A stretch of 64,000 bases of DNA from an uncultured Eubacteriales bacterium. GTDB taxonomy: Bacteria; Bacillota; Clostridia; Christensenellales; UBA1242. How positions within the stretch are numbered: the first letter of the stretch is position 1; each line of letters opens with the position of its first letter. Of the stretch, positions 4,212 through 64,000 are shown piece by piece. Where the stretch lies: assembly GCA_949841245.1 (NCBI GenBank), contig CATKYT010000002.1:7227-71226 (forward strand), given 5' to 3'. Below the pieces are notes generated by a model. It made no database searches and was not told where the DNA came from. It saw only the letters and a program-made list of their open reading frames with translations. Made by a program: the position numbers and the translations under genes.

Positions 4212-6292
4212 TCACTCCTGTAAACTTTAATGACATTTTTAATTTGTTCAAAATTATTTATTATAGTGTTTAATTCGTCTTTATTTGAAATTTGAACAGT
4301 TATTTCAAACACAAGTTCGCCATTGATTTCTTTATAAGCAAAGGCTTTCAAATTGTTTTTCAAAGCACGAGAAGCATTGTTTAAAGCATTGACAACCGAA
4401 TTGGAATTTTCTGCAACAACTTTGACTGTGGCAATGAAGTTTGCAACCACACTGTCTTGCCATTCTGCTTTAATCAATCTTTCTTGTTCTAAGTGTTTTA
4501 AATTTGGACATTCTGCTCGATGAATAGTCACACCACGACCATGTGAAATGTAACCAATGATTTCATCACCAGTAACTGGACTGCAACATCCTGCATAACG
4601 AATCAAAAGTCCACTGTCGCCATCAATTAAAACACCTTCTTTATTTCTTTCAACTCTGATGGTGTTCGATTTAAGTTGAGTTGATTTTTCTTTGCTGTAA
4701 AGATTGATAAGTCTGCCAATTACACTTCCTGCTGACAAACTTCCTGCACCAATTTCCGCGTAAAGAACATCCAAATCATCAATCATCATATTTTTGGCAA
4801 TTTGAAGCAGATATTCTTCTTTGGAAGTCTTAGTGAATGTAAGATTTCTTGCTTTAATTTGCTGTTCAACAATCGCCTTTCCAATACGGATGTTTTCGTC
4901 TTTAAGTTCACTCTTAAAAAATGCTTTAATCTTAGACCTTGCACTTGAAGTTTTAACATAAGAAAGCCAATCACGAGATGGACCTTTGCTGTGCTGATTT
5001 GTCAAAATTTCAATTACATCCCCATTTGAAAGCGTGGTTGTAATTGGAACAATTTTTCCATTTATCTTTGCACCAACACAGTTGTTTCCAACATCAGAAT
5101 GAATGGCATAAGCAAAGTCAACAACAGTTGCACCAAGTGGAAATTCCAAAATTTTCCCTTTTGGTGTCTGGACAACAATGGCTTCTCCATATAAATCCAC
5201 TTTCAATGTTTCCAAAAATTCATCAGATGACATTTCATTAGAATTTTCCAAAACTTGTCTGAACCATGCCATTTTTTGGTCAAACTTATTTTGCCCACGG
5301 CGTTTATATTCTTTGTAAATCCAGTGTGCTGCAACACCGTATTCCGATTGTCGATGCATGTCAAATGTGCGAATTTGAATTTCAAGTGGTCTGTTGTTGT
5401 CTGCAACAATTGTGGTGTGCAAAGATTGATAACCATTTGGTTTTGGATTAGCAATGTAATCTTTCACCCTTCCAGGAATTGGTTTATAAATGGCATGAAT
5501 TTTTCCAAGCACCGCATAGCAATCTTCCACAGAATCAACAAGCACTCTCATGGCAATAAGGTCATAAACTTTTCCAAGTGTTATGTTTTTTCTGACCAAC
5601 TTTTTATAGACACTTGAAAAGTGTTTTTGTCGTCCTTGAATTTCACCTTTCTTGCCAATTTCTTCCAAAATTTGTTGCAATTTTTTGCGAGTAAGTTCCA
5701 TTTGCTTTTGGTTATCATCTGCTTTCAAAAGAGCATTATTTTTCAACTGTTCAAAAGCAACTGGTTCCAAAAGTTCAAAACAAAGGTCTTCATAACTTCC
5801 TTTAAATTTTGAAAGTCCCAATCTTTCTGCCAAAGGTGCAAAGATGTCTTTAACCATATTGACAAAACGATTTTCTTGTTCGCTCATAGGATTATGTATT
5901 TGTTGCAAATCATAAAGAATAGTCGCAAATTTGACAATGACAACCCTAAGGTCTTGACAAATGGCGACAAACATTCTTCTGATATCTTCTGCTTCTCCAC
6001 CTTTTGCCAAAGCATCCACATCTTTCAAAATTTTGAAAGTTTCGTAAATTTTTTGCTGCTCGGCATTCAATTTTCCTTTCAAGCCGTCTGCATTTTTTTC
6101 TTCAAATTTTGAAAACTGAAAAAGCACATAAGGCACAAGAAATTCGTTTTGAATGTGATATTCAATCATGGTGTCAATCACAAATTCCAATCTAGGTTGA
6201 TTGATTCTTTTGTCAAGACACAAAGAAATAATTTCTTCGTCTTTTTGATTTAACTTAAAATTTTGTTTAATTTTATTTAAAAGATTTTCCAT
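4208..6292 (-). CDS. relA: Long RelA/SpoT homologue ((p)ppGpp synthetase); the hydrolase domain looks degenerate
   Basis: Synthetase motifs are intact (YDLIAMRVLV, GYQSLHTT, EIQIRT, GVAAHW). TGS (GATVVDFAYAIHSDVG) and a C-terminal ACT-like region are present. HD motifs are missing from the N-terminal domain. Confidence 0.9.
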   Translation of the reverse strand: MENLLNKIKQNFKLNQKDEEIISLCLDKRINQPRLEFVIDTMIEYHIQNEFLVPYVLFQFSKFEEKNADGLKGKLNAEQQKIYETFKILKDVDALAKGGEAEDIRRMFVAICQDLRVVIVKFATILYDLQQIHNPMSEQENRFVNMVKDIFAPLAERLGLSKFKGSYEDLCFELLEPVAFEQLKNNALLKADDNQKQMELTRKKLQQILEEIGKKGEIQGRQKHFSSVYKKLVRKNITLGKVYDLIAMRVLVDSVEDCYAVLGKIHAIYKPIPGRVKDYIANPKPNGYQSLHTTIVADNNRPLEIQIRTFDMHRQSEYGVAAHWIYKEYKRRGQNKFDQKMAWFRQVLENSNEMSSDEFLETLKVDLYGEAIVVQTPKGKILEFPLGATVVDFAYAIHSDVGNNCVGAKINGKIVPITTTLSNGDVIEILTNQHSKGPSRDWLSYVKTSSARSKIKAFFKSELKDENIRIGKAIVEQQIKARNLTFTKTSKEEYLLQIAKNMMIDDLDVLYAEIGAGSLSAGSVIGRLINLYSKEKSTQLKSNTIRVERNKEGVLIDGDSGLLIRYAGCCSPVTGDEIIGYISHGRGVTIHRAECPNLKHLEQERLIKAEWQDSVVANFIATVKVVAENSNSVVNALNNASRALKNNLKAFAYKEINGELVFEITVQISNKDELNTIINNFEQIKNVIKVYRSE

Positions 6293-15489: not shown

Positions 15490-15575
15490 GCCGAAGTGGC
15501 GGAATGGCAGACGCACGGGACTCAAAATCCCGCGAGGGCAACTTCATGTGGGTTCGACTCCCACCTTCGGCACCA
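15490..15575 (+). tRNA. tRNA-Leu (anticodon CAA), class II, CCA encoded
   Basis: Cloverleaf drawn by hand: acceptor GCCGAAG/CTTCGGC, D stem GCG/CGC, anticodon stem CGGGA/TCCCG with loop CTCAAAA, long variable arm, T stem GTGGG/CCCAC with loop TTCGACT, discriminator A + CCA. Confidence 0.9.
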
Positions 15576-24954: not shown

Positions 24955-27900
24955 TTAAAATAAATGATCAAATTCAATTGCTGTGCCTGTGGTAGAACCA
25001 AAGAAATTAGCAAAGAGAATATAATTACTTCCACCTTGTTCAGGTCTGGTAAATGTAATATCACAGAAGCAAACTGAATTATCAGCAGGAGAGATGCTTT
25101 CAGTTATATATTGTGATTTTGGAATTTCCAAATCTCCATAACTGTCATTCAAAGCATCATCTGTGGATTTTAAAGTAATGGTTACATCAGAACTTGCAAC
25201 TCCCCTGTCCACAACATTAACTTTTCCGATAATGGAAGAATCGACATTTTCAAATGAATAAGAAGCACCATTATCAAAACCAATTATTGCCCCTAAATAA
25301 GCTTTGACAGTGTTTGAGTAAACGCCGACATAAATTCCAAAGTTTGGAACAATGTCAGTGCCCAAAGATGTAATTTCAAATTTATTGCGTCTTTGTTCGT
25401 CACTTGTTGACATGAAGATGTTGACATTTCTGCTTACTGAACCAGCCAAACCACCAACTCCAACTTCGCCTTCTTGTTCATAAAGTCCACCAACTTGCAA
25501 ATTGGATAATACATCAATATTTTCCAAAGTAAGTGTAGCATTGCCAGATGTGTTAATTGAACCTGCAATTCCGCCAACATAACAATAACCAATGATGTCG
25601 GCTTTTACATAAATGTCATTCAAAGCGACAGAAGCATTTATCAAACCTGCAATTCCACCCAAAGAGCCAAATCCTTTGCTTGCACTAATTGTGCTTACAG
25701 CAATAGATTGAGTGGTTTTGACATTATTAAGAACACCACCACTAACCAATCCAGCAAAACCACCAATAGCATTTGCTGTGTAAGGCATGGTTGAGAAGTT
25801 TTTGAAATATGTTCCTGAGCCAATAATTTCAACATTTGAAACATTACCTTTGCTTTCTCCGCAAACAAGTCCACCATAGTTGTAAGCATTGACAACATTT
25901 GCATCCAACATTTTAAGCGTAACTTTATCTACATATGCATTTCTGTCAATAAGACCAAACATAAGACCTGCCTTTGCACCCAACACAGAAACGACTGTAT
26001 CTTTAACAGTGTTGATTGTTTTTCCATTTCCACTTAAAACACCAAAGATAGATCCAGCAAAAGAATAAGAAGTATAATCAGTTGAACTGCTGTTAAACTC
26101 ATTTAAAATAATGCTTTGATTTCTTGCCACAGCATCCACACTTGAATAAACATTTTGGAATTTATAATCACCAAGTGCAAGACCTGCAACACCACCAACA
26201 ATGTTAAGTCCAGAAACATTGATGTTCTGATTTTCACCTAAATCATTGTCAACAAAACTGCTGTCTGTCAATATGTTGATGTTTACAAGTGTTCCACTGT
26301 CAACTTTACCAGCCAAAGTTCCTACAACCCTTGCATTAGAGAAAGAAACCACTTTTGGTAATACAGTTAAATTCATCACAGTGCCAACAGAATTATTATT
26401 AGCACCACCAATTTCAGCAAACAAACCACCATAAATCAGTGATTCCCCAGAAGTCAATGTAATGCCCTTAATTGACATGAAGTTGCCTTCCATATAACCC
26501 ATAAATCTGGTTTTGTTAAGTCTGCTTACATCAGAATATTCAGCATAATCAATGTCAGATATAATTCTGTAATATTTTTCGTTTAATCCAGTAATCTGAC
26601 TGTTTTCAGATGCAATCAATGTTTCAAAGTTTTCAGCATTATTAATAAGAATTGGATTATAAATCGAGCCATAACTGTTTCCAGAATAAGCATAACTGTA
26701 AACAATTGAAACTGCACCTTCATCGCCAACTACTTCACTAACTCCAATCAAATTTCTTTGTGAACGAGCAATAATGTTTGCTGCAACAAGTTCAATTCTG
26801 CCAGTGTTAAATTCACATTCATTGAAATTAGCGTTGTCACTTGCATTGTCATTAAAGAACCAAACTGAATTTACATCTCTGCCATCAGCAACGACATATT
26901 CACCAAAATATTTGGAAATATTGTCATGATAAACCACTTCTCCGTTTACATTTTCAGAATAGTTTCCAAAGTCTTTGATTTGAAGTTCTTTAATGTCTGT
27001 AAACTGATCTTGTGGAATTTTTTCAATGCTTACATTAATAGGTGTTTCATAATCAGCATCAGAAAGATAATAACAATTTTTAATTAAACCATTGGTTTCA
27101 TTTCCATTTGACCCACTTTCCAATTTATTGGACCTTGCAAAACCAAAAGAAGATGCTTGATTACTTGCCAAAACGCTGGTTGAAAAACATCTTTCAATAT
27201 TTCCCGCATTTTCATATACAAATCCAGAAGCAAAGAAACCACGATGCTCCAAATTGATGTTGGAATAACAATCTTTAATGTCCCCTGTGTTTGAATATGC
27301 AAAACCTGAAATTTGATAACCAGACGAAATTCTGTTTTCAGTCCCTTCATAGAACACAGAATTTTTATCAGCCACACCGCTTACATAAGAAGTATAAATC
27401 TTTCCATTGTTTACAACAACAAACCCAGCAGTGTTTCTTACAGCAGTGGAATTTATGATGCTTGAGCCATAATAGTAACTGCTTGTAATAACACCATAGG
27501 AACTGTTTATGCCAACTAAGCCAGCAATGTTTGCATTCCCCCTGATGTTCACTTTAGAACGGGAATGTGTAAGATAAGCATTATTTGTTGCGACAATTCC
27601 GCTGATATAATTTGAAGATGCATCAATTATGTTATTAACAATCAAACTTGCACCATTCAAAGATTCTGCTTGACAATTTGTCACAATTCCGTTGTTTGTT
27701 GAAGCAAGAAGTCCAATGTTAAAGTTTTGAGCAGTAACATTGAAAGTTGTGTCAGATGAAATTCTTATATTGACATTACTTATAATTGCTTCTTCAACAA
27801 TTTCAGCAAAAATTCCAATTTCTGAAACATCAAAATCATATTCCCCAGAGAAATTGATGTTAAAGCCATTTCCATCAAGTCCAGCAATGGAAGCAGTTAT

Positions 27901-30900
27901 TGGCATAAATTGACTTTCGCCTTCGTGTGCTTGTGCATAAACACTGTCGTGCAAATCTATGTCAGAAAGCAAGATATACCATCCATCATCTTCCATAGCA
28001 ATGAAATCTTCATATGTTCTTATTGGAATAGGACTGTTTCTTGTGCTTTGCTGACGAATGTTAAACACAAAGCGTGTTTTAATTTTGTCCAAACCATTTA
28101 CAGAAGCGTTGTATAAACCACCATTAATGTCATAGAAACCTTCGCATTCAAAATAATAAACATTTTCTTGACTGTGATATTCTTTAAGTGCTGTGAAAGT
28201 AAATGAATCAATGACATAATAATCATTCGAGATTTTTCTTCCATTTGTCAATTGTGTGCCCATTGGATAATCGTTTACATCAAACAAATTCCAAGTCATA
28301 TTTTGTGTCAAGTCATTGACAAATTTTGAAACTTGTTGACTTACTCCTGAAATTGAACTGTCAAATTCAATAAATTCACTTATGTTTGACCTAAATTCAA
28401 ATGGATTACCTATTGTGATGTTGATCGCCCCATCTTCCATGCCATAGACAATATCTTCATTGATGCCATCTGTAAACATGTAATTAAGCACATATTCCAT
28501 TACATAAATTTTTAAAACATGATTAGTAATTATGTTGACATTGTCCACAACTTTCTTTGCAATTGTTGTAACTTCAACATAATATCCTGCTTTGTCGGAT
28601 GGATAGAAAATAATGTCATTTGTTACATTTAAAGTGAAAGTTTCTTTATCAAATGAAACAATGTTTTCGGCATTGGTTGAAACTTCCAAAGAATCTGTGG
28701 CAAAATCAAACCCATAACTTTCAAGATGCAATTTATAAGAAAGTCCTCTTGCAAGATAATAATAACCATTTTGTTCTTTCTTTGCATCAAAAACAAGTTT
28801 GGCATAACTTTCAAGTTTAGTTGTTAAATCGATATGTCTATTCTCATTTTCACCAGAAAGTTTTTTTACAGAAACATTAAATCTTACCGAAACACCATCT
28901 TCAACATTGATTGAAGGCAAAGTGTAAATCAAGAAAATTTTCCCCACATAGAAATCGTTGTCTTTTCCAATCACTTCTTCAAGTTTAGTAATCATATCTT
29001 CATATGTGAATGTGTAAACACCATTGACATAAGTCCCGAAATTTGGCACCTTTACATATTCAACGCTGGAAAAAGCATTATATTTTCTGTAAGCAAATTG
29101 GAAAGACGCAATTCCAGCACCCGCATTAGAATTTCTTTCATCATTAGAAATTGTAAATCTGTCAAACACTGCTTCAATAGGGTCAAGGTCAATTTCAAGC
29201 AATCCTTCTTTAGATGGAACTATCACTTGGTCTGGTTCAGTTACATTATTTTTGTTTGAGAAATTTCTGATTTCAAAAGAACTTAACTCTGATTCTTCCA
29301 AAGTCACAACATAAGAAAGTGTTGGAGCACCTTCGGCATTTAATTCACTAGCGAAGAATTCAATTACATAATCGCCAAATATATCTTCTTTAAATCTGTC
29401 TTTAAACAAATCACTGTTGGCATTAACCATTCCTGTGAAGTTAAATACATTTCCAGTCCTTGTAAATTTCAAATTAAATAAGGTGTCTTTATTATCCAAA
29501 ATGCTGTTGATGTAATAAGACCAACTTTGATAATTTGGTTTCAATTGTTCACTTAAATTGTCATATTCTGTGTCTGAAATTATGGAGTTTAAATCAACTT
29601 TTGATGGAAATCTGCTTTGAATCACTTTTCCAAATTTATTGGTTATGCGATAGAACAACAAATCTTCATCATTCGAAGAAGTCACCGTGATGGTGTCATG
29701 GAATTCTTCGTTTGTTTTTACAATATAACCACCCATTGTTTGTGAAACAATTTTTGTTGCTCTGTCACGATAGGTCAGTTTTAAGTTGATTGAAGCGTTT
29801 TCCAAAACATAATAGAAAACAAATTTATTTCCATTTTCATCAGTAACAGGAGTTGCCAAAACTGGAACAATTTGGTAATTATCAATTTCGCCATTGACCA
29901 CTTCTCCATCTTTTCTTAAAAATATAATTGTTTGAGCATCAATGTTTATTGTTGAAAAATAATCTTCACTTGTTTTGTCAGTTAAATCTTTCACTGTCAA
30001 ATTGGCATTTTTTCTCAACTGATAACTTACATTTTTATATGACAAAACACCCGTTTTAGAAATTGAGAATTTTGTTCCATTTACATCTTTGCAATTTTGC
30101 AATTCATAAGATGGCACAAGATTAATTGTTGTATCATTATATCCATATATATTTACATTGCTTCCACTGGATATTGGATTTGAATTTAAACTTGCACCAG
30201 TGTAGAACATAGACATTTCGTCTTTGTTAAAGAAATTTACTACATAAACATAGACAGTTTTTGTGACATTTACATTCAAAATGCTGGACAAGTTAAGCAC
30301 AGCCACTCTGCCAGAATTCAAAACAGTCAGGTTTCCGTTGGAATCCACTGTCAAAACATCTGTGTTTGAAGATGTGATTTTAATGTCATTGCTGGATGTG
30401 GAGAAAGCAAATGGATAGAATTCGCTTCCAACATTTACTGTGTTAAGATCGTTAATTTCATCTTGAATTGAAGCATTTTCGCTTCCAAGACGACCAGTCA
30501 CAGCAAAATAATACATAAAGAACACATCAACATCCGTTGTTTCATCGGATGACATCATAAAAGGATTGTTATCTTTGTCATAATCCATGACAACACTGCC
30601 TTTCTTGAAAGTATATGCTTCTTGCAATTTAATGTCGTTGTCTTCATTATAAACAATTATGTAATCACCATAATATGATGTCTTAGATTGAGAAGAAACT
30701 GCAACAATCGGTCCAGAAAGTGGAGCCCCTCTTGAAAGATAAGAATATGCTTCAAAGTGATAACCAGAATAATCCAAACCATTGAAACCACCAATAGCAA
30801 AGAAAGAATTTGTCACATTTACAGGCAAGTTGCTTTCAACTCGGGTTTTAATAATCATAGAACTGTAAAAGCACACTCTGCCATCATCAATGGCTGAAAT

Positions 30901-41373: not shown

Positions 41374-42294
41374 ATGAAAACATTAAAATTTTATCTTAAA
41401 GATTGCAACAAAAATGGATATTGCCTAGGGGCATACAATTTTATCAACATGGAATTTTTAAAAGGAATTTGTGAAGGATGCAAAGCAACCAATTCGCCAG
41501 CGTTTCTTTCAGTCAGCGAAGGTGCTTTTGATTATATGGACGCAAACTTTGTGAAAGCAATGTTTGATGCCGTTAAAAAGGAATATAAAATTCCATTCTT
41601 TTTGCATCTTGACCACGGCAAAAGTTTTGACATGTGCAAAAAGGCAATAAATTGTGGCTTTGACAGTGTCATGATTGACGGAAGTTCTTTGTCTTTTGAA
41701 GACAACATCAAACTTACAAAAAAAGTGGTGGACTATGCACATAAAAACAATGTGCTTGTCGAAGCCGAACTTGGTGTGCTTGCTGGTGTTGAAGACACTG
41801 TTAAAGCCGACAAATCAATTTATACTGACCCACAAAAAGCCAAAGAATTTGTGGAAAAAACAGGATGTGACACTTTGGCTGTCGCCATAGGAACAAGCCA
41901 TGGTGCCTATAAATTTAAAGGCGAACAAAAAATTCGTTTTGACATCTTAAAAGAAATTGAGAAAGCAATTCCAAACACACCACTTGTGCTTCATGGTGCT
42001 TCCAGTGTTCCACAAGAATATGTTGAAATAATAAATCAAAATGGTGGAGAACTTCAAGGTGCTGTTGGCATTCCAGAGAAATTTCTTACAAAAGCAGCAA
42101 CAAGCCACCATATCATAAAGATAAACACCGACACTGATTTAAGATTGGCTTACATGGCAACATTAAGAAAACATATGAAAGAAAACCCAAAGAATTTTGA
42201 CATCAGAAAAGCAAACAAATTGGCAATAGAAAAAATTGCCGAACTTGTAATCAAGAAAAACACAAAGGTGTTTAAATGCAAAGACAGAATATAA
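41374..42294 (+). CDS. fba: Class II fructose-bisphosphate aldolase
   Basis: 306 aa; HLDHG, GTSHGAYK, LVLHGASS motifs. Confidence 0.9.
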   Translation: MKTLKFYLKDCNKNGYCLGAYNFINMEFLKGICEGCKATNSPAFLSVSEGAFDYMDANFVKAMFDAVKKEYKIPFFLHLDHGKSFDMCKKAINCGFDSVMIDGSSLSFEDNIKLTKKVVDYAHKNNVLVEAELGVLAGVEDTVKADKSIYTDPQKAKEFVEKTGCDTLAVAIGTSHGAYKFKGEQKIRFDILKEIEKAIPNTPLVLHGASSVPQEYVEIINQNGGELQGAVGIPEKFLTKAATSHHIIKINTDTDLRLAYMATLRKHMKENPKNFDIRKANKLAIEKIAELVIKKNTKVFKCKDRI

Positions 42295-43028
42295 GAAGAA
42301 ACAACGACGTTTCACATGAAGGTCACAGACTCAGACTGACAGATTTGGTGGAAAAAGCAGGCATAGAAAATGTCAGTAATATTCAATCTGTTGAATTTTT
42401 CTTGACATACATATTTCCGCGTGGCGATGTAAATCCACTTGCACACAGATTGCTGGACAGATATGGCACATTTGGAAACATTATTGATGCCAGCGTAAAC
42501 GATTTAATAAATGTAGATGGCATAAACAAAAGAAGTGCCAAGAAAATTAAATTGTTTGGTGAATTGATGTATCTTTATTCGTCTTCCAAAATGACAAAAA
42601 GTTTAAGCATAAACAACACTGGCGAATTTTTAGATGCCATGGAAGAACTTTTGCGTTTTCACAACACTGAAAGTTTGTTTTTATTTGCCTTTGACCATGG
42701 TTACAACTTTATACAAAAACGCAGATATGATTTAAAACAAGTCCGCGAAGTCGGAATAGATCCATTGGAATTTTATGAATTTATTTATTCCACAAGACTT
42801 TCTTATTTGGCAGTCGCCCACAATCATCCAAGTGGCACAGCATTGCCATCGCCAGATGACCACAATGCGGTTCAACGAATAAACCATTTAATGATCAACC
42901 TTTCTTGCGAATTTTTTGACAGTTTCATTGTTGGCAGAGATGGAATTTACAGTCAACGCCAAGAAAGTTTTGTCAGAATTTTTGAATCTGTTGACAACAT
43001 AATAAACTTTCTTCAAGCAAAAAAATAA
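42276..43028 (+). CDS. radC: RadC-like JAB/MPN domain protein, paralogue 1
   Basis: N-terminal GHRLRL..FFLTYIFPRGDVNPLAHRLLDRYGTF..; JAMM motif VAHNHPSGTALPSPDD. Overlaps the fba end by 19 nt. Confidence 0.8.
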   Translation: MQRQNIRRNNDVSHEGHRLRLTDLVEKAGIENVSNIQSVEFFLTYIFPRGDVNPLAHRLLDRYGTFGNIIDASVNDLINVDGINKRSAKKIKLFGELMYLYSSSKMTKSLSINNTGEFLDAMEELLRFHNTESLFLFAFDHGYNFIQKRRYDLKQVREVGIDPLEFYEFIYSTRLSYLAVAHNHPSGTALPSPDDHNAVQRINHLMINLSCEFFDSFIVGRDGIYSQRQESFVRIFESVDNIINFLQAKK

Positions 43029-43967: not shown

Positions 43968-44171
43968 TTAATCTTCTCGCCCTACAAGATAGTCAATTGA
44001 AACTTTGAAAAAGTCCGCCAAAACAATAACACCTTCAATATTTGGAATTCTTAAATTCGCTTCCCAATGTTGTATTGTTGATTTAGGCATCTTACATTCT
44101 TTTGCTAATTGTTCTTGAGTCAAACCCAATTCCAATCTCAATTCTTTTAATCTCTCTGAAAACTTATTCAT
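43968..44171 (-). CDS. XRE-family HTH regulator (67 aa)
   Basis: MNKFSERLKELRLELGLTQEQLAKE.. is an HTH_3-type sequence. Confidence 0.85.
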   Translation of the reverse strand: MNKFSERLKELRLELGLTQEQLAKECKMPKSTIQHWEANLRIPNIEGVIVLADFFKVSIDYLVGRED

Positions 44172-44279
44172 TTTTTTATTTAATCTTCTCGCCCTACAAG
44201 ATAGTCAATTGAAACTTTAAAAAAGTCCGCCAAAACAATAACACCTTCAATGTTTGGAATTCTTAAATTTGCTTCCCAA
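43968..44279 (-). repeat. Tandem duplication (212-nt period) of the XRE gene 3' halves
   Basis: 43968..44067 and 44180..44279 differ at 3 of 100 positions by eye. The encoded C-terminal 31 aa are identical. Confidence 0.85.
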
Positions 44280-44383
44280 AATTGAATGGTAGTTCTTGGT
44301 ATACCACTTTCATCAGCAAGTTGTTGTTGAGTTAGACCCAATTCCAATCTTAATTCTTTCAATCTTTCTGGAAATTTACTCAT
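44180..44383 (-). CDS. XRE-family HTH regulator (67 aa), tandem paralogue
   Basis: Start trimmed to ATG 44383 (MSKFPERLKELRLELGLTQQQLADE..). The longer ORF-track N-terminus is hydrophobic and non-homologous. Confidence 0.8.
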   Translation of the reverse strand: MSKFPERLKELRLELGLTQQQLADESGIPRTTIQFWEANLRIPNIEGVIVLADFFKVSIDYLVGRED

Positions 44384-51755: not shown

Positions 51756-51864
51756 ATTTTTCTCCTTTTAAAGACTATTGTCTTAATTATATTATAATAA
51801 TACTATAGGCTTATGTCAATAATTTTTAGCCCTTTTGTCTTATAATGTAAAAAAGGAGAATAAA

Positions 51865-52068
51865 ATGGAAAAATTATCAAAAAGATTAAAAGAATTAAGA
51901 CAGGAAAAGGGTTTATCACAATCTCAACTTGCTAAAGAAATCCAAGTTAATCAAACAACTATCGGAAAATGGGAAGCATGCAAACGAAGCATTACAGTTG
52001 AATACATAATCGCATTATGTAATTATTTTAATGTATCTGCTGATTATTTAATTGGTTTAGTTGACTAA
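51865..52068 (+). CDS. XRE-family HTH regulator (67 aa)
   Basis: Start trimmed to ATG 51865 (AAAAGGAG SD). MEKLSKRLKELRQEKGLSQSQLAKE.. Confidence 0.85.
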   Translation: MEKLSKRLKELRQEKGLSQSQLAKEIQVNQTTIGKWEACKRSITVEYIIALCNYFNVSADYLIGLVD

Positions 52069-52100: not shown

Positions 52101-52304
52101 ATGAATAAATTTGCAGAAAGATTAAAAGAATTAAGATTAGAAAAAGGCTTAACTAAAATTCAACTTGCAGCAGAAATTAAATATTCTTCTACTATAATAG
52201 GTAAATGGGAAAACAAAAAGCGAAGCCCAAATATGGAAGCAATCATTGCTTTATGTAATTATTTTAAAGTATCTTCTGATTATTTAATCGGACTTACCGA
52301 TTAA
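52101..52304 (+). CDS. XRE-family HTH regulator (67 aa), tandem paralogue
   Basis: MNKFAERLKELRLEKGLTKIQLAAE..; same length and C-terminal ..DYLIGL motif as its neighbours. Confidence 0.85.
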   Translation: MNKFAERLKELRLEKGLTKIQLAAEIKYSSTIIGKWENKKRSPNMEAIIALCNYFKVSSDYLIGLTD

Positions 52305-52994: not shown

Positions 52995-53381
52995 ATGATT
53001 GATTTAAAATCTAAACTTGTTTTAAAGATTTTGGCAAACGAATGTGGGAATGGAAACTATAAAATTGTCGAAGTGTCAGACATCATTCTTGCACTTCCAA
53101 GACGCTATCGCATGGACAGCGAAGCAGTGAAACACATTTTAAATTATTTAGAACGCCAAGACATAATCTCAATTAAATATGATGACGACAATGTTTTTTG
53201 CCTAGCAGTTTTGCCTTATGGGTTTGAACTATTGGAAACGGAAAAACCAATTAATTTAAAAGCCAAACCAGTAAAGGAAAAAAAGTGGAATTTTGTCATG
53301 ATTTTATCCAACTTTATTTCTGCACTTGTTGGCACCGTTTTGGGCATTGTAATATGCTATTTTCTTTTAAAATTGTTTTAA
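52995..53381 (+). CDS. Small membrane-anchored protein, paralogue of 52516..52875
   Basis: 128 aa; C-terminal FVMILSNFISALVGTVLGIVICYFLL. The N-terminal region aligns with its neighbour (K.K.V...L...C.......I....I..AL...Y.....E......L.....I). Confidence 0.55.
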   Translation: MIDLKSKLVLKILANECGNGNYKIVEVSDIILALPRRYRMDSEAVKHILNYLERQDIISIKYDDDNVFCLAVLPYGFELLETEKPINLKAKPVKEKKWNFVMILSNFISALVGTVLGIVICYFLLKLF

Positions 53382-53386
53382 AAAAA

Positions 53387-53411
53387 GACTGGAATAATCA
53401 GTCTTTTTTTA
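53387..53411. terminator. Bidirectional terminator
   Basis: Stem AGACTG/CAGTCT with 7-nt loop, A7 before and T6-7 after. Confidence 0.7.
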
Positions 53412-53436
53412 AGTTATATGTGCATATGTGCAAACA

Positions 53437-54180
53437 TTAAGCACCTTTCATCTCTTTTAATGACTTATGAAGTTGGTCAATGTCATAATAAGTTCTTACA
53501 AGACCATCTTTACGCTGACTAAACACTCCATCTTCGCCAATGATGAAAGAGTCAATAAAATTAACTCCACAAGTTTGACAAACTTCATCCACCATGTTGA
53601 AACCATTTACATCCGTGCCAGACGGAAATGCTTTACCAAAAGGATGACAATGAGCAACCACCAAAGAAGCAGGTTTTGCTGTTGCCATGAAACTTGTAAG
53701 TTCCAAAACACTTAAACTGACTTCGTTGTTGCTGTTTGACTTAATTCTTCTTTTGTGAGTAACCATGTTTGCAGGACTTAAAGCTAACAGAATCATGTTT
53801 TCAGAAGTTCGAAATCTAAGATTATCTTCAACAATGTCAATTAAATCAGCAATGCAAGAAACCACACATTTGGTTCCCATTTTGGCAGTGGCATAATAAT
53901 AGAACAACTCGCTGAACATAGAAATCTTTTTTGCGGAACGCTCGTTAAGCCCTGTAACTCTCATAAGGTCATTTACATCAGCATCAATAACATGAGTAAA
54001 ACTTTCATATTCATCCAAAAGACGATGAGCCAACGGATTTACATCACCACGCGGAAAGATGTAAGTCAAGAAAAATTCCATAACTTGGTATTTGCTCATA
54101 TTATCAACACCGGCATTGCAGGCAAGGTCTAAAAGCCTTGCCCTGTGCCCATCATGAATATTTTTCTCATCCTTTTTCAT
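53437..54180 (-). CDS. radC: RadC-like JAB/MPN domain protein, paralogue 2
   Basis: Start trimmed to ATG 54180 (AAGGAG 8 nt upstream). GHRARL..FFLTYIFPRGDVNPLAHRLLDEYESF..; metal motif VAHCHPFGKAFPSGTD. It begins 34 nt after the giant ORF stop. Confidence 0.75.
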   Translation of the reverse strand: MKKDEKNIHDGHRARLLDLACNAGVDNMSKYQVMEFFLTYIFPRGDVNPLAHRLLDEYESFTHVIDADVNDLMRVTGLNERSAKKISMFSELFYYYATAKMGTKCVVSCIADLIDIVEDNLRFRTSENMILLALSPANMVTHKRRIKSNSNNEVSLSVLELTSFMATAKPASLVVAHCHPFGKAFPSGTDVNGFNMVDEVCQTCGVNFIDSFIIGEDGVFSQRKDGLVRTYYDIDQLHKSLKEMKGA

Positions 54181-54214: not shown

Positions 54215-57200
54215 TTATTGAATTGTTTGACCAGTGAAATTGCCTGCACTTGCTTTATTAATGAATTCACCACTTGTCCACAAAACTTTTCTGAAACTGT
54301 GTGCCGATCTCGTCCAAACAACACCATTCTCATCATGAGATAATTTTCTTACTACATAATAGTCAATGTCTGTATTTTCATTATGAATTTTTTGACCTAA
54401 ACTGCCGCCGTAATTATAACCGAAGCAATTTTTCATAATACCCCCTCTTGCATCGTTGTGAAATCTTGGACGAATTCCATAAGAGTGATCAACTATATCA
54501 CCCATAGACTTAAACTCTGTGCAATACTTATTTGCATAAGCACCAATAGTAGTAGAATAATTTTTAAAATTTTTATCTGTACTTCCCCATGTGCAATTAA
54601 AATTATTTTCCCAATATCTCCCTGTATCATTTTTTTGAACCATATCCTTTGATGTGATTTCTGAACTGTAAAAACTTGAACTTGTATAAGTTAAATTATT
54701 ATTTTCTGCTCTCAAAACACCAAAAGTTCCAATTCCATCATTTCCTGAGAAATTTTTGATTCTATTGCTGTCATTAATTTGGTTATCTTCGGTTAAATAA
54801 GGGTTTTTAATAATCCTGTTTGATAAAGATGAAACAATGTTTTCATTATTGTCCTTAACAGTTCCATTTACACCACTTGTTGAACCTATTCTTCCAAGTC
54901 CACCTTTATTATTTACATTATAGGAAGATAAAGCATGTCCACCATCTCCGCCATAGCCACCAATACCAGCATGTCCAGCACGTGCAATGCCATTAAACCC
55001 AGAAGCAACAACAATGTTTCCACCACTTGTTCCACCCGAACTGCCATTTGTTTCACTGCCTCCATCCAATTCGTCTGGTCTATAACTGTATGAAAGTCCG
55101 TTTGTTCCATTCTTGCCATTAGCACCATTACCAGCAATTAAAATGTTATGATTGTTATAAGTTCCATCTTTGTAAGTGCTAACCGTAGCATCTGAAATAT
55201 TCGATTTTACTTCTTGCCCCGAAACAATTGCATCCAAACCATTAATGGTTAAATAACTGTTTACTTCTTTAACTTTATTTGAAGCAGTTTTAATTGGTGA
55301 AACATTACTGAGTGTCATGTTTGAAATGTTTCTCATATTTCCATAAAGTGAAACATTATCCAAAATTCCAGCATTTTCATTTTTAGTAAATGCAGAATGA
55401 ACATTTTTACTGTCTGAATAAACTGACCTTAAAGAAACATTGGAAATTACAATCATATCCTTTATTTTGTTGGTGTTGTTTACAAATATATGAGAATTAA
55501 GTGTTGAATTCATTTTAAACAAATAATTGTTTCCAATAATATTTTTTGTGTTGTAACCAACATTTTCATCTTGCAAATAAATATTTGCTGCCACAATAAT
55601 GTTGTCAATTTGTCCAGCGCCGCTTCCAGATTCTTGTAAAACTTCCTTATTGCTTACTTCAATTCTGGCATTATATTTCTTTTCGTATTCGGTTTCATAA
55701 TAATGCCCTGCTGAAATAACTCCATCTTCTTTAATTAAGAATTCATTATTTCCATCTTTTTCTCTGTAAGTCAAATTGCTGTAATTTGGATTATCTCGGA
55801 CAGTAGTGTCTTCATACTGATAATTTTCAGTCAACTTTTCAATTTTATATTCAGTTTCAATTGGTGGTTTTTTCTCCAAATAAGAACATTCAAAATTTAA
55901 ACTTTGATTTGCATCTGTTCTTGCAAACACAATTTCCAATTTTTCTGAATCTGTATATCTTGTATTTCTTATGCTGGAACTTATATATTTCAATTCAAGT
56001 GTTGTGTCTTTATCTAAACTATATCTGTTAAATACATCGAAATTTGGTTTATCCATTTCAACAGGTTCCATCCAATCTATAATTATTTCTTGTCTGTCAA
56101 CTGTGTTTATATATTCAGCTTTGATGTCAGAAACAAACATTTTGCCATTTTTGTAGATAAACTTTTTGCTATTTTTGTGGTAATCAAATTGAACATCATA
56201 AGCAATTTCGCCTTCAACAGCTTCGGGATCTTCGGTCAATTCATAATTGTAAGCATAATATTCAACAGTCAAAGTTCCATCATAATATGAAGTAAATACA
56301 ATATATTTTCTGTAAACTTCTTCTGTAAAATCTCCGCCAGTAAAATCTTCATAACAATAGATTGTTCTGTTATATCCAACTATGTCACCATCTTTCTCAT
56401 ATCTATCTGCACCAGTTTCGAAATAATAATCTTCACTTTTATAAAGTGGATTTTTTTCATGAAACCAGTAATACAAATTTGATTTATATGAATATGCAAC
56501 TTCTTCTTTACTTCCAGAAGATGTCAATGGATAATCTAATTCATTATGTTCTATATGGTCATATACCCCATTAAGATTAGTGTTGGTTAAATAAACTTCC
56601 AATCTTCCTTGTTTGATGTTTTTAAGTTCAATAACATTGTCTGACTTGTTGTCAACTTTACCAAAACCTATGTCAATGATTTCTCCATTGTCATAAACTT
56701 TATATTCATAACCAACTTCATTAAAATTGGTGTTTTTATATTCAAGATAATAATGACTTGGAGTATATTCAAAAGTTTCTGTCACTTCATAGAAAGTGAT
56801 TCCGCCAACAGTTACAGAATTATTATTTGTTACTGTTTGTGCATATTCAGCAAAATTTTCACCTGTAAACACTGCTTGGTTTTGCTTGTTGAATTCAAAG
56901 TTTTCTTTATTTCCTAAAATAACATTTTGATAAACATTGAAATAATTGTCATAGTAAATTAAATCTTCTTTATTGAAATCAGATGTTGAACTTGCAATTT
57001 CAGATTTTGTATAACTAAATGTAAAATCATGGTTTGCAATAAAGTTTAAAATATCTGCTGTGTTGACAATAATTGCCAATTCATCTGTTCCAGTAACTTT
57101 GTAAAGATATATTGTTCCATCAGCAAAATCTATATGGTAATTAAGTTGATTGCCAGTTCCACCCAAATCTCCACCTTTACCAATGAAATTTGTTCCATCA

Positions 57201-60200
57201 AAGCCAATGTAATGATTTTCATCAATATAAATAACACTCTTTGATGTAGCACCAATTTCTGAAGTTCCGTCAGAATTTACAATGTCATATCTATAACTTT
57301 TTAAAGTTCCATCAATATCACTTTCAATTGCATCAATAAGCCTGTCTAATTCTGAAAAAGATTTATCTTCCTTTTCTTTAAATGTAAAGTCTTTAAATTT
57401 TTCAGTTGAATTATTAATCAAATTATACTCAAAATGGTCGTTTCCACTTTCTGTATTTAAATTCTTAGAATCAACAGTAACTTTTGAGAAAACTATTTCC
57501 CCAGCATTTATTAAATAATGTGTTATATTTAATGGTTCGCCAGAAAAACTGTGATTACCTTTAATAAGTAAATATGCTCCTTCATATTCTTCGCCGTTTG
57601 CCATAAATGTAGGAGTGAAAAGACTGCCAGTTTTATCATTAGATGCATATCTTAAAACATCAATATCTAAATAAGTTTCACCATTTAAATTAAAGGTGTA
57701 ACTGTTACCATTTCTTCGTTTACTTATATCTCTTTCAGTCACATTTTGCAAATCATTGACATTATTCATATTTATGTGAAGTGATTTTGAATTTGTTGAA
57801 TCAACCATATCTGTAAGCAAAATATAAGTGTCATTGTTATGATGAATGACCGTATTCTTTGCCAAAATAACACTTTCAATTCTTTCATATTCAAAGTAAA
57901 CTTCAATTTTACTTAAAACATTAGAAACTTCTGCATTAAAGAACAATTCTGCCGTAATTTTATATTGATTTCCTTCATTTGCAATATCTTCAATGACAAA
58001 TTTATTTAATTTTCCACTGTTGTCCACCAAATTAATCATTTCGGCATTAATGGTTTGATTGTTCATGTTTTCTACATTTAAAGTAAATTCTGCAGTAACT
58101 CTAAAAGGAGAATACACATCATTGATGTTGTCTTTGTTGTAAACAACTGCAACAGACTGACCTGCAACATTGAAATCAACAAAATTTTCAATATTAATTT
58201 TTCTTGCTTTATCAATTTTATTTACAAAATTTTCAATTATTTTATTTGCACCTGAAATAGTTGATGATGAGCCTTCTGGTATAATTGAATCAACATTTTT
58301 ATAAGAAGTTTCATTTGTTGGCAAGACATTTAATTCTTTCAACAATTCATCATAACTTTCAAAAGTAACAGATGAATAATATTCTGTATCACAAGCCATT
58401 CCGATATCTTCCAAAGTCAAGCCTACACTACCATAGGAAAGATCTGTACTAATATCAGGTAAGTTTGTTATATTGCTAGAGTTATAGCTGTAATAATCTC
58501 CTCTTCCAGTTCCTCCCACTTTTTCTGCTTTATTTTTATAAAAATAGTAACCAAATATCATATAATCCGCACCAGAAGTTTGTGGAATATCATGGTAATA
58601 GCTTTCTAAAATTGCATTTTTATATTTTCCATCTTCAATATCACCATTTGGTTGGTATGCTCTTGTAATCGTATCTTTCATATAAACTCTGGTTGCAAAA
58701 CCATAAGAATCAATTCCATTTACATACAACTTTTCATCAACCAGATATTTACCATAAGATAATTGATGATTTTCATCATTTCCTAAAATTTTCTTTCTTT
58801 CAAATATCAAATCTTGTGTTTTAATTTTTTGACCAATAACCCCGTCATTAAGTATGTTATCTGTTGAAGTTCCACTGTTGCTAATGTGTTTACTAATATT
58901 AGAGCCATCAACAGAAGGTGCATATCCAAGACCATACGCAAAAACCTTTCTCAACAATCCTTCATTATAAACTGTTGTAACTTTATAAATAAGCTCTACT
59001 GGGACATTTGTATATTCTTTTATTTCGGGATCTCCACTTGCTAGTTTTTTATAAACAGCATTTGTTGAACCTGTTCCAAGTGCTTCAACTTTTGCATCAT
59101 TAAAACATTTTTCAATTTTAAATTCTGCTGTGCCATAGCCAAAGATTCCACCTGCAACGCTGTAACCTAACTTATTGTCTGTTCCATTGTTTGCAAAATT
59201 GCCAACTCCTACCATGCCAGTGTTATATGACTTGCTGACAGTACCTCTATCTACAAAACCTACAATCCCACCCGCAACAGCGTTTTGAGTTTTATTTTTT
59301 GTATAGTTTGCCAAAACTGCGTTTACATTATATGAATCAGTTACACTTCCACCAACCATATAACCCACAAGTCCACCTGTTACAGAATTTAAAGATATAT
59401 TTCCACCTCTAACTTCATTAACTTTGTGTTCATCGTTATTGTTATTGCCAATTTCACCATTAATGCGGATATTTATGTCATCAATAGTATTTTGATTTTC
59501 AGAAACATTTTGAATTATGCCAGCATTAGAAACAACTGATAATTTTGTATTTTGTGAGTAACCGACAACACCACCTGTAAACGATGCTGATGCTGAATTG
59601 GTTATGTTTACAATAGATTCAATATTTTCCATTTCAGAATTTTCTGCACTTCCAACTACACCACCAATTTTTTCTGCACTTAATTCGATATTTCCAATTA
59701 CAGTAATGTTTTTCAATTTGCCATTTGTCATAGTTCTTGCCAAAATTCCAAATGAATTTTTATCAGAAGAATTATTTGTTTGTTCATTAATAATTCTTAA
59801 ATTTTCTATTGTTCCTGTAAATGAATCAAACAAAGGTTTTGTTTCGCTTGCAAAAGTTAAAGTCTTTCTGTTTCCATCCAAAACAAATTCCTTTAATTTA
59901 TTGGCATCTTGTGGATTAAATTCTTTGTCAAGATAATTTTCATCAGTTATATTGACATCATATTTAAGAAGATATTTATATGGCATTTGTGAAATAATCA
60001 TGTCATTAAACTTTTTGCTGTTTAAAACTGCAAGATACCAATCATTTTGATAAGTGTTTGCGGTAGAACCATTTGTGTCAATCAACTCAGAATAATCAAC
60101 TGCTGTGTAAGCATAAGTGCCATCTTTATTGACCACATCAAGTGCATTTTCACCACTGCCATTTTTATCTCTTGTGTAAGTTGTTGTGTTTTTAAGATAA

Positions 60201-64000: not shown

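Follow-up and report, generated by a model that had tools for sequence, protein, structure and literature searches.

Does the open reading frame (ORF) that runs off the end of this stretch of DNA belong to a real gene and, if so, what kind of protein does that gene encode? The stretch analysed (hereafter the window) comprises 64,000 nucleotides from an uncultured Eubacteriales bacterium (GenBank assembly GCA_949841245.1, contig CATKYT010000002.1), and the ORF in question, which we call giant 2, occupies its last 9,786 nucleotides on the minus strand. A preliminary description of the window had taken it for the second member of a diversifying family of giant GLUG-repeat surface proteins, truncated by the window edge, the first member being an ORF of 3,493 amino acids (aa) that we call giant 1. 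Giant 2 proved to be a real, intact gene under purifying selection. The reading that we favour, with a probability of roughly 55%, is that its product is a giant adhesin-like fibril, anchored by a lipid and variable at the end that recognises a ligand, both ligand and fold being unproven.

Translation of the minus strand gave 3,261 sense codons from the window edge to a TAA stop codon at 54217..54215, as expected of a giant ORF cut by the edge. The window has 26 ORFs that reach 150 aa or more, this one included, and giant 1 and giant 2 together take up 31.7% of it ((9,786 + 10,482)/64,000), where about 32% had been claimed. The extent of the whole gene was established from a conspecific allele. 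An exhaustive HMMER search among 1.84 billion representatives, with in-window aa 1700-2850 as query, matched 7 proteins, including a protein of 6,668 aa (P0004) that is 99% identical to the in-window protein and matches the query with its aa 5105-6257. The word-index search missed this 99%-identical protein; only the exhaustive HMMER search returned it. P0004 is a full-length conspecific allele and is carried on a 70-kb Logan contig (L006) with 98.3% nucleotide identity to the window over 19.8 kb. At position 64000, on the window edge, stands an ATG, which had been suspected to be coincidental and which is indeed the internal Met3411 of P0004. A second conspecific allele encodes 6,673 aa and, from two indels relative to P0004, the allele of the window is expected to encode about 6,671 aa. 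The window thus holds the C-terminal 49% of a gene of about 20 kb and about 6,670 codons, twice the length that is visible; the remaining 5' 10.2 kb lie beyond position 64000.

The gene was also found in a sister species. A single scan of the genome_contigs collection, using the first 400 in-window residues as query, gave one locus (contig CATLAM010000001.1, hereafter L003; 78% identity), in which the giant 2 frame is open for more than 6,650 codons and runs off the locus about 85 codons short of the start. Two scans of JGI metagenomes found no relatives. It is true that short-read assemblies break in or near the gene (ENA contig ERR3199652_8636 stops within the 3' end of giant 2) and that a related protein, P0001, starts at a contig edge. 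However, the probability that we are dealing with an artefact of assembly or with a pseudogene in decay is practically negligible. The ORF is intact in the window and in two Logan assemblies (6,668 and 6,673 aa), is colinear in at least three conspecific assemblies and in the sister species, and has a ratio of non-synonymous to synonymous substitution rates (dN/dS) of 0.09-0.27 over 20 kb. No tandem, dispersed or long direct DNA repeats were found in the gene. The lack of repeats, together with the colinearity across independent assemblies, rules out a collapsed-repeat artefact, and chimeric repeats were rejected on the lack of tandem or long direct repeats as well; neither these artefacts nor the frame disruptions that the preliminary description had allowed for were encountered. 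The G + C content at third codon positions of giant 2 resembles that of the neighbouring genes. A comparison of lengths between strains gave the two giant 2 alleles mentioned above and a giant 1 of 3,493 aa in all 4 assemblies.

The N-terminus of giant 2 was read on P0004, since that of the window allele lies outside the window. Lipoprotein signals were recognised by a PROSITE PS51257-type pattern for signal peptidase II (SPII), consisting of a basic n-region and a hydrophobic h-region followed by [LIVMFWSTAG]2-[LIVMFYSTAGCQ]-[AGS]-C, with the cysteine about 15-35 residues from the start. P0004 begins with MKKFALGILSVFLIFGGMILTAC, a lipoprotein signal peptide that matches the lipobox pattern, and the N-terminus of giant 1 (MAKSLRKVLISVIGAISLLLMGFLFVGC, ...GFLFVGC) matches it as well. 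A signal peptide with a lipobox cysteine was also present in the related proteins P0002 and P0003, in a 2,865-aa giant on locus L005 and in a giant of at least 3,387 aa on locus L004; all complete members of the family begin in this way. None of the giants contains further transmembrane (TM) segments. The C-terminus of P0004 has neither an LPxTG motif nor a TM segment, and a sortase anchor was rejected because the C-terminal LPxTG is absent. From what is known of SPII lipoproteins, the N-terminal lipobox predicts export by Sec, lipidation of the cysteine and an N-terminal tether, and with such a tether the C-terminal half present in the window would be distal to the membrane. It is quite likely that giant 2 is a real surface-anchored lipoprotein.

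Giant 1 and giant 2 had been proposed to belong to one family of giant surface proteins. When aligned pairwise, they are homologous beyond the window edge but not detectably related within it. BLASTP of giant 1 against P0004 gave an E value of 9e-37 with 27% identity over 743 columns, and the homologous modules (Table 1) lie upstream of position 64000. Between giant 1 and the in-window half of giant 2 no relation was detectable (BLAST E value 0.004; no match of phmmer tiles). Relatives of giant 2 are few: three were found in the word-index database, and the seven among the 1.84 billion representatives include one that is probably spurious. P0001 (3,524 aa, N-terminus lost at a contig end) is the sole word-index match to the in-window protein, is 30% identical to it and sits in the same giant-RadC-UvrB-UvrA order. 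P0002 (5,527 aa) and P0003 (4,919 aa) share with giant 2 the upstream synteny Mfd...LPG_synthase...M23-ACP-SpoIIID, and are homologous to the proximal half of giant 2 only; unlike the proximal half, phmmer tiles of the distal half matched neither P0002 and P0003 nor other giants. By these searches the distal half of giant 2 is clade-specific. The distant HMMER matches P0005, P0007 and P0010 were set aside; they have no informative domains, and P0010 is the probably spurious one.

On locus L005, P0003, the 2,865-aa giant and rpoB directly adjoin each other in that order. Giant 1 finds its best homologue in this 2,865-aa giant, and in the window it, too, lies ahead of rpoB. The adjacency and the homologies on L005 show that the giants of the window are one family; in a related genus its members adjoin each other, and here about 19 kb lie between them. 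The assumption of a family therefore held, every complete member having a lipoprotein signal from which a surface location is predicted. On locus L004 an 827-aa ORF (26753..29236) lies between two giant lipoprotein genes; it has no Pfam match and is dissimilar to the VirB4-like ATPase of the window.

The feature that had drawn attention to both giants is the GGxxG motif, of which at least 14 had been claimed in giant 2. We counted 19 in the in-window protein, against 2.8 +/- 1.6 in shuffled sequences, and 12 of them fit GG[LIVMF][IVLAF]G; giant 1 contains 10, against 1.5 expected. A strict form of the GG motif occurred 21 times, against 0.43 expected. Several modules of giant 2 open with an LDGNGxTI-like motif, and the GG-hydrophobic-hydrophobic-G motifs are spaced 30-47 residues apart or at multiples thereof. 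The largest block, at in-window aa 96-930, is 34% identical to P0001 with invariant GG-x-x-G columns. Before it (aa 1-95) comes the last part of a module that begins beyond the window edge; this part is 87-88% identical to the sister species, and its W-x3-YW...FP-x-I motif WNANYWQHKQDKLFPQI is kept in the L003 protein and in P0001.

The name GLUG-repeat, under which both giants had been described, is justified for one block only. Scans of the whole giant 2 protein against Pfam and NCBIfam gave nothing significant, and GLUG surfaced only when sub-fragments were scanned. The fragment of in-window aa 1380-1700 matched Pfam PF07581 (Glug) in 4 stretches with an E value of 7.6e-9 and 35.8 bits, where the gathering cutoff is 20.5 bits; the P0004 tile that covers this module scored 26.3 bits. 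LDGNRKTL at aa 1374 opens the module, and GG-hydrophobic-hydrophobic-G motifs follow at aa 1446, 1476, 1542, 1577 and 1617. A second Glug match in P0004, at about aa 1234, reached 19.7 bits and is below the cutoff. The block at aa 380-1130 gave no Glug match even at E<=10, and the block of giant 1 failed the cutoff (E value 1.2, 10.2 bits). The GLUG matches (4 stretches of about 23 aa and the one below the cutoff) span less than 2% of 6,668 aa. GLUG-like repeats are related to a solved solenoid, PDB 3N6Z (PMC4021314). The GGxxG modules of giant 2 are probably beta-solenoids.

Downstream of the GLUG-positive module lies an orphan region (in-window aa 1700-2850), the least conserved part of giant 2. 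Its richness in Y, E, D and N, seen earlier, was borne out by the composition of aa 5251-6250 of the full-length protein (D + E 15-18%, N 10-14%, Y up to 14%). The C-terminal region that follows is conserved in L003 and partly in P0001, and would be the membrane-distal tip if the protein is N-terminally anchored. The C-terminal 562 aa had no homologue in the word-index database of 5.8 billion proteins. Over 90% of the giant 2 protein matches no family; NCBIfam and PHROGs found nothing on 700-aa tiles, and sequence searches of the PDB reached no chain, neither 3N6Z nor IgA1 protease, whether the query was the in-window protein, one of two module profiles or the upstream half of the orthologue on L003. 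The protein is essentially non-repetitive, as is its DNA: BLAST of P0004 against itself gave no off-diagonal match at E<1e-3, and phmmer tiles gave one weak internal pair (aa 3120-3257 with 4859-4994).

The two halves of giant 2 have evolved at different rates. Compared with the sister species, the proximal half (full-length aa 79-3400) has about 90% aa identity and a dN/dS of 0.085, and the distal half in the window has 59-81% identity and a dN/dS of 0.27. For giant 1 these values are 90% and 0.085, for the VirB4-like ATPase upstream of giant 1 98% and 0.024, and for the housekeeping neighbours 93-98% and 0.02-0.045. The switch in rate lies near full-length aa 3400-3700, and its closeness to the window edge is a coincidence. 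The dS of giant 2 (0.63-0.82) is inside the range of its neighbours (0.46-0.89), so that the excess divergence consists of non-synonymous change and does not stem from an old or foreign allele; on these values we rejected that the low identity was brought about by an ancient allele or a horizontal replacement. With 75% identity between the species, the final 60-150 aa belong to the better conserved parts.

Within the species, 47 of the 62 aa differences fall in in-window aa 981-1600. The proportion of synonymous differences (pS; pN for non-synonymous differences) ranges from 0.003 to 0.19 along giant 2 and from 0.013 to 0.074 in its flanks, and two small indels (5 aa and 2 aa) separate the alleles. 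This mosaic divergence points to intragenic recombination and indicates that giant 2 recombines between strains. A hypervariable target of a diversity-generating retroelement was rejected; the window has no template/variable repeat pair and no reverse transcriptase. The term diversifying, as used in the preliminary description, thus fits in so far as the distal half evolves in a fast, polarised and recombining manner, but its dN/dS is only 0.27 and not above 1.

Taken together, the following picture of an adhesin-like protein is proposed. Giant 2 would be exported by Sec, cleaved by signal peptidase II and lipidated at Cys23, and its N-terminus would tether it to the cytoplasmic membrane on the outer side. 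A conserved stalk may be formed by the proximal 3,400 aa, in which beta-rich domains would give way to 'LDGNGxTI...GGxxG' modules similar in type to GLUG and to the N-terminal part of IgA1 proteases. With more GGxxG modules, the Y/E/D/N-rich orphan region and an orphan Gly/Asn-rich C-terminal tip, the distal 3,260 aa would project from the cell as a recognition or adhesion end that binds a host, dietary or microbial surface, where it could be exposed to selection by partners, phages or immunity. Fully stretched, so long a chain might in principle span a large fraction of a micrometre. Surface exposure, solenoid fold and adhesive function are what we infer from the sequence. Several observations weigh against this picture. 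The N-terminus is that of a conspecific allele, the window allele being cut before it. Pfam, NCBIfam, PHROGs and sequence searches of the PDB revealed no domain for adhesion or for the binding of carbohydrate or cell wall, and no tandem-repeat stalk is recognisable, unlike in typical fibrillar adhesins. The dN/dS remains below 1, and relaxed constraint on the distal half fits equally well with it as diversifying selection does. Both AlphaFold2 models, each built on a two-sequence alignment, were unusable (aa 95-930, pLDDT 39.7; C-terminal 481 aa, pLDDT 26.9), and Foldseek with the first of these found nothing (best E value 0.63); these results carry no weight, and the proposed folds are putative.

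Much of the same evidence would also suit a protective or structural envelope coat, an acidic surface layer or glycocalyx-like cover against phages, bile or immune factors, in which the distal changes would reflect escape from phages or antibodies that use the protein as a receptor. Giant 2 is strongly acidic (net charge -283) and N/S/T-rich, it has a predicted lipid anchor, its putatively exposed half combines a raised dN/dS with recombination mosaics, and an adhesion domain was not found; the evidence does not discriminate a coat from an adhesin. However, a single-copy chain of 6.7k aa is a costly building material, and no S-layer (SLH/CWB2) or self-assembly domains were detected in giant 2, which makes us consider a coat unlikely. 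A scaffold with cryptic enzymatic beta-helix domains (a polysaccharide lyase or hydrolase, or an IgA1-like protease) that degrades host or dietary polymers at the cell surface seems more doubtful. Polysaccharide lyases and tailspike depolymerases commonly fold as right-handed beta-helices, and P0004 gave a match to the M26 IgA1 protease N-terminal family (Peptidase_M26_N) of 20.4-21.1 bits, below the cutoff of 27.7. However, the HExxH motif is absent from every giant of the family, on which a metalloprotease identity was rejected, and there was no match to Peptidase_M26_C, Beta_helix, pectate-lyase or glycoside-hydrolase families, even in 700-aa tiles. Profile searches against the PDB were empty.

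The VirB4-like ATPase gene that precedes giant 1 (Table 1) might hint at a role in contact between cells. The encoded protein scored just below the cutoff of NF045975, a mycoplasma model named 'Mbov_0397 family ICE conjugal transfer ATPase' (ICE, integrative conjugative element), and has an N-terminal TM hairpin (aa 15-51). The pairing of VirB4 and giant 1 is kept in the sister species (locus L007), where VirB4 is 98% identical. The orthologues of giant 1 and giant 2 are adjacent on L005 in a related genus. Conceivably, both giants and the orphan, mycoplasma-ICE-type VirB4 are what can be seen here of an apparatus for contact between cells that is specific to this lineage, with giant 2 as a non-repetitive tether of about 6,700 aa, a fast-evolving, recombining distal half that sets partner specificity, and undescribed folds or functions in the C-terminal tip and the Y/E/D/N-rich region; we regard this as a long shot. 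Slimmer still is the chance that giant 2 is the mating or contact adhesin of a minimal VirB4-dependent transfer apparatus, comparable to PrgB in the conjugation systems of Gram-positive bacteria or to surface lipoproteins encoded by mycoplasma ICEs. The same pairing and adjacency would speak for it, but the locus is chromosomal and syntenic, amid housekeeping genes, and VirB4 is not adjacent to the giants on L004 and L005. No other gene of a type IV secretion system lies near VirB4, and no coupling protein, VirB6-like protein, relaxase or hydrolase was found in the window. A VirB4-like partner upstream of giant 2, which had been left open, is absent on L006, the genes there encoding an M23 peptidase, an acyl carrier protein (ACP) and a SpoIIID-like protein. 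The least probable of the functional readings is a polymorphic-toxin-like effector, a filament presenting a C-terminal toxin to neighbours in the manner of CdiA, Rhs or MafB. It would agree with the long-filament architecture, with the C-termini that differ between paralogues and with the lack of homologues of the last ~560 aa. The conservation of the extreme C-terminus between species is, however, the opposite of hypervariability; the downstream gene is a conserved RadC and not a variable immunity gene, and no toxin, pre-toxin or immunity family was matched. Each of these four rivals (coat, cryptic enzyme, mating adhesin and toxin) lacks the trait that would define it, as far as this could be examined, and the lipid-anchored adhesin-like protein described above remains the reading that we favour.

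The positions of giant 2, its parts and the nearby features are listed in Table 1.

Table 1. Features of the window related to giant 2 (aa, residues of the in-window giant 2 protein unless stated otherwise)
Feature	Position	Strand	Basis or remark
Giant 1 (G1), 3,493-aa paralogous giant lipoprotein, MAKSLRKVLISVIGAISLLLMGFLFVGC...	24955..35436	(-)	aa 2456-3096 homologous to P0004 aa 2334-3004
VirB4-like ATPase	35457..38168	(-)	20 nt upstream of giant 1; NF045975, 583.8 bits (cutoff 590)
Terminator-like hairpin after RadC	53377..53413		Likely end of a transcript of giant 2 and RadC
RadC-like JAB-domain gene	53437..54180	(-)	34 nt downstream of giant 2, same orientation
Giant 2, C-terminal 3,261 codons + TAA	54215..64000	(-)	Corresponds to aa 3411-6668 of P0004
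C-terminal region, aa 2851-3261	54218..55450	(-)	Asn/Gly-rich ILIAGNGANGKNGTNG...AGHAGIGGYGGDGGHAL; conserved tail ...HSFRKVLWTSGEFIN...
Y/E/D/N-rich orphan region, aa 1700-2850	55451..58903	(-)	No Gly motifs, no Pfam match; 48-71% identity to sister species
Short second within-species divergence patch, aa 2571-2620	56141..56290	(-)	pS 0.185; 2-aa indel
GLUG-positive module, aa 1380-1700	58901..59863	(-)	Pfam PF07581
Within-species divergence hotspot, aa 981-1600	59201..61060	(-)	pS 0.107, pN 0.033; 5-aa indel (SNAIK)
Largest GGxxG block, aa 96-930, motifs at aa 489-801	61211..63715	(-)	Motif positions; unrecognised by Pfam GLUG
End of module starting upstream of the window, aa 1-95	63716..64000	(-)	W-x3-YW...FP-x-I motif WNANYWQHKQDKLFPQI

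The giants had been said to lie in what otherwise looks like a housekeeping region, which agrees with the other genes of the window (RelA/SpoT, RecJ, AspRS, GatAB, PPase, RpoBC, HflX, FBA and UvrABC). In the source databases, those proteins of the window that carry an organism name are assigned to a 'Clostridia bacterium' MAG. Downstream of giant 2 follow RadC, UvrB and UvrA. The longest RadC ORF seems to overlap the 3' end of giant 2; its orthologues start at its Met53 (window position 54180), leaving the gap given in Table 1. The RadC neighbour is kept on L001, L003 and L006. No terminator was found between giant 2 and RadC, and the hairpin after RadC is likely the end of a transcript that would cover both genes. 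Upstream of giant 2, L006 carries genes for Pth, Mfd, a 623-aa protein, an LPG_synthase_TM protein, three small ORFs, the M23 peptidase, ACP and a SpoIIID-like helix-turn-helix (HTH) protein. A 300-nt AT-rich spacer separates the last of these from giant 2, the start of which has a GGAGG ribosome-binding site and a promoter-like TTGACT-18-TATAAT site. The M23 peptidase, ACP and SpoIIID-like genes directly precede the giant on both L006 (8445..9698) and L005 (7829..9068); on L004 (8682..9555) M23 peptidase and ACP precede the giant and no SpoIIID-like gene was called. This order resembles what we take to be the spoIIQ-spoIIID neighbourhood of sporulating Firmicutes.

Some further features of the window were recorded. 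A second RadC-like JAB-domain gene is located at 42276..43028 (+). Between UvrB and RadC, two paralogous small HTH_31 genes stand in tandem (51835..52068 (+) and 52101..52304 (+)), seen as a 197-nt direct repeat with 71% identity. A 67-aa Xre-type HTH gene is duplicated in tandem (43968..44171 (-) and 44180..44383 (-)); this 211-nt direct repeat with 85% identity is the sole structural difference between the window and L006. The sole RNA gene found in the window is a tRNA-Leu (CAA) at 15490..15575 (+).

How does giant 2 compare with large surface proteins already described? Searching the literature by the accessions of the samples turned up nothing of relevance. With the classical giant fibrillar adhesins (Ebh, SiiE, LapA/RTX and serine-rich repeat proteins) it would have in common that it is very large, acidic, extracellular and cell-anchored, with a distal end presumed to bind a ligand. 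Classical giant adhesins string together dozens of nearly identical domains in tandem, and their anchor is LPXTG, a C-terminal TM segment, retention in a type I secretion system or a type V secretion system. In contrast, the predicted anchor of giant 2 is an N-terminal lipid and its chain is essentially free of repeats. Proteins with GLUG motifs or the N-terminal part of M26 IgA1 proteases (ZmpA/B/C; PF07581, PF05342) are similar in that one module of giant 2 passes as GLUG, and that other modules show the LDGNGxTI...GGxxG pattern and M26_N matches below threshold; giant 2 differs from them in having no M26_C catalytic domain, HExxH motif or LPXTG anchor.

When bacterial proteins above 5,000 aa are grouped by function, surface or host-attachment proteins form the second largest class (PMC11573180). 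The Giant1-5 proteins of Apilactobacillus kunkeei have a signal for signal peptidase I, long imperfect repeat arrays that are mostly alpha-helical, and C-terminal DUF5776/SH3b-like wall-binding domains (PMC12863079). They resemble giant 2 in belonging to Firmicutes, in their size (3,000-8,000 aa), in an atypical, Asn-rich composition and in an N-terminal signal peptide; in addition, several giant genes lie in one chromosomal region and take a noticeable share of a small genome, parts are predicted to be beta-solenoids, and the genes diversify by short intragenic recombination (PMC12863079). Giant 2 differs in its N-terminal SPII lipobox, in having almost no internal repeats and no DUF5776, and in the lack of sequence similarity. 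The giant proteins of Omnitrophota (30,000-85,000 aa) have many TM regions and divergent SecA DEAD helicase domains (bioRxiv 10.1101/2023.11.21.568195). Like giant 2, their genes were recovered from metagenomes and are often broken by assembly; they encode beta-helix segments (bioRxiv 10.1101/2023.11.21.568195), as giant 2 probably does, but giant 2 has neither their size nor the many TM regions or the SecA DEAD helicase domains. Giant surface proteins are therefore already known as a kind, and giant 2 is unusual but not unprecedented. It is distinct in the combination of a predicted SPII lipid anchor, a non-repetitive chain of which over 90% is without a family, very few relatives and a gradient of conservation from stalk to tip.

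No long-standing question hinges on giant 2, and its function is deduced. Giant surface proteins are nevertheless often the main interface of bacteria with the host, food particles, phages and neighbours, and they are systematically lost from short-read metagenome assemblies, at least two of which break at giant 2. Giant genes of this type are likely to be under-counted in catalogues. If the distal half is confirmed as the recognition end, it would be a source of uncharacterised protein folds and, in this uncultured lineage of Clostridia, would naturally mark the niche or partner specificity of individual strains.

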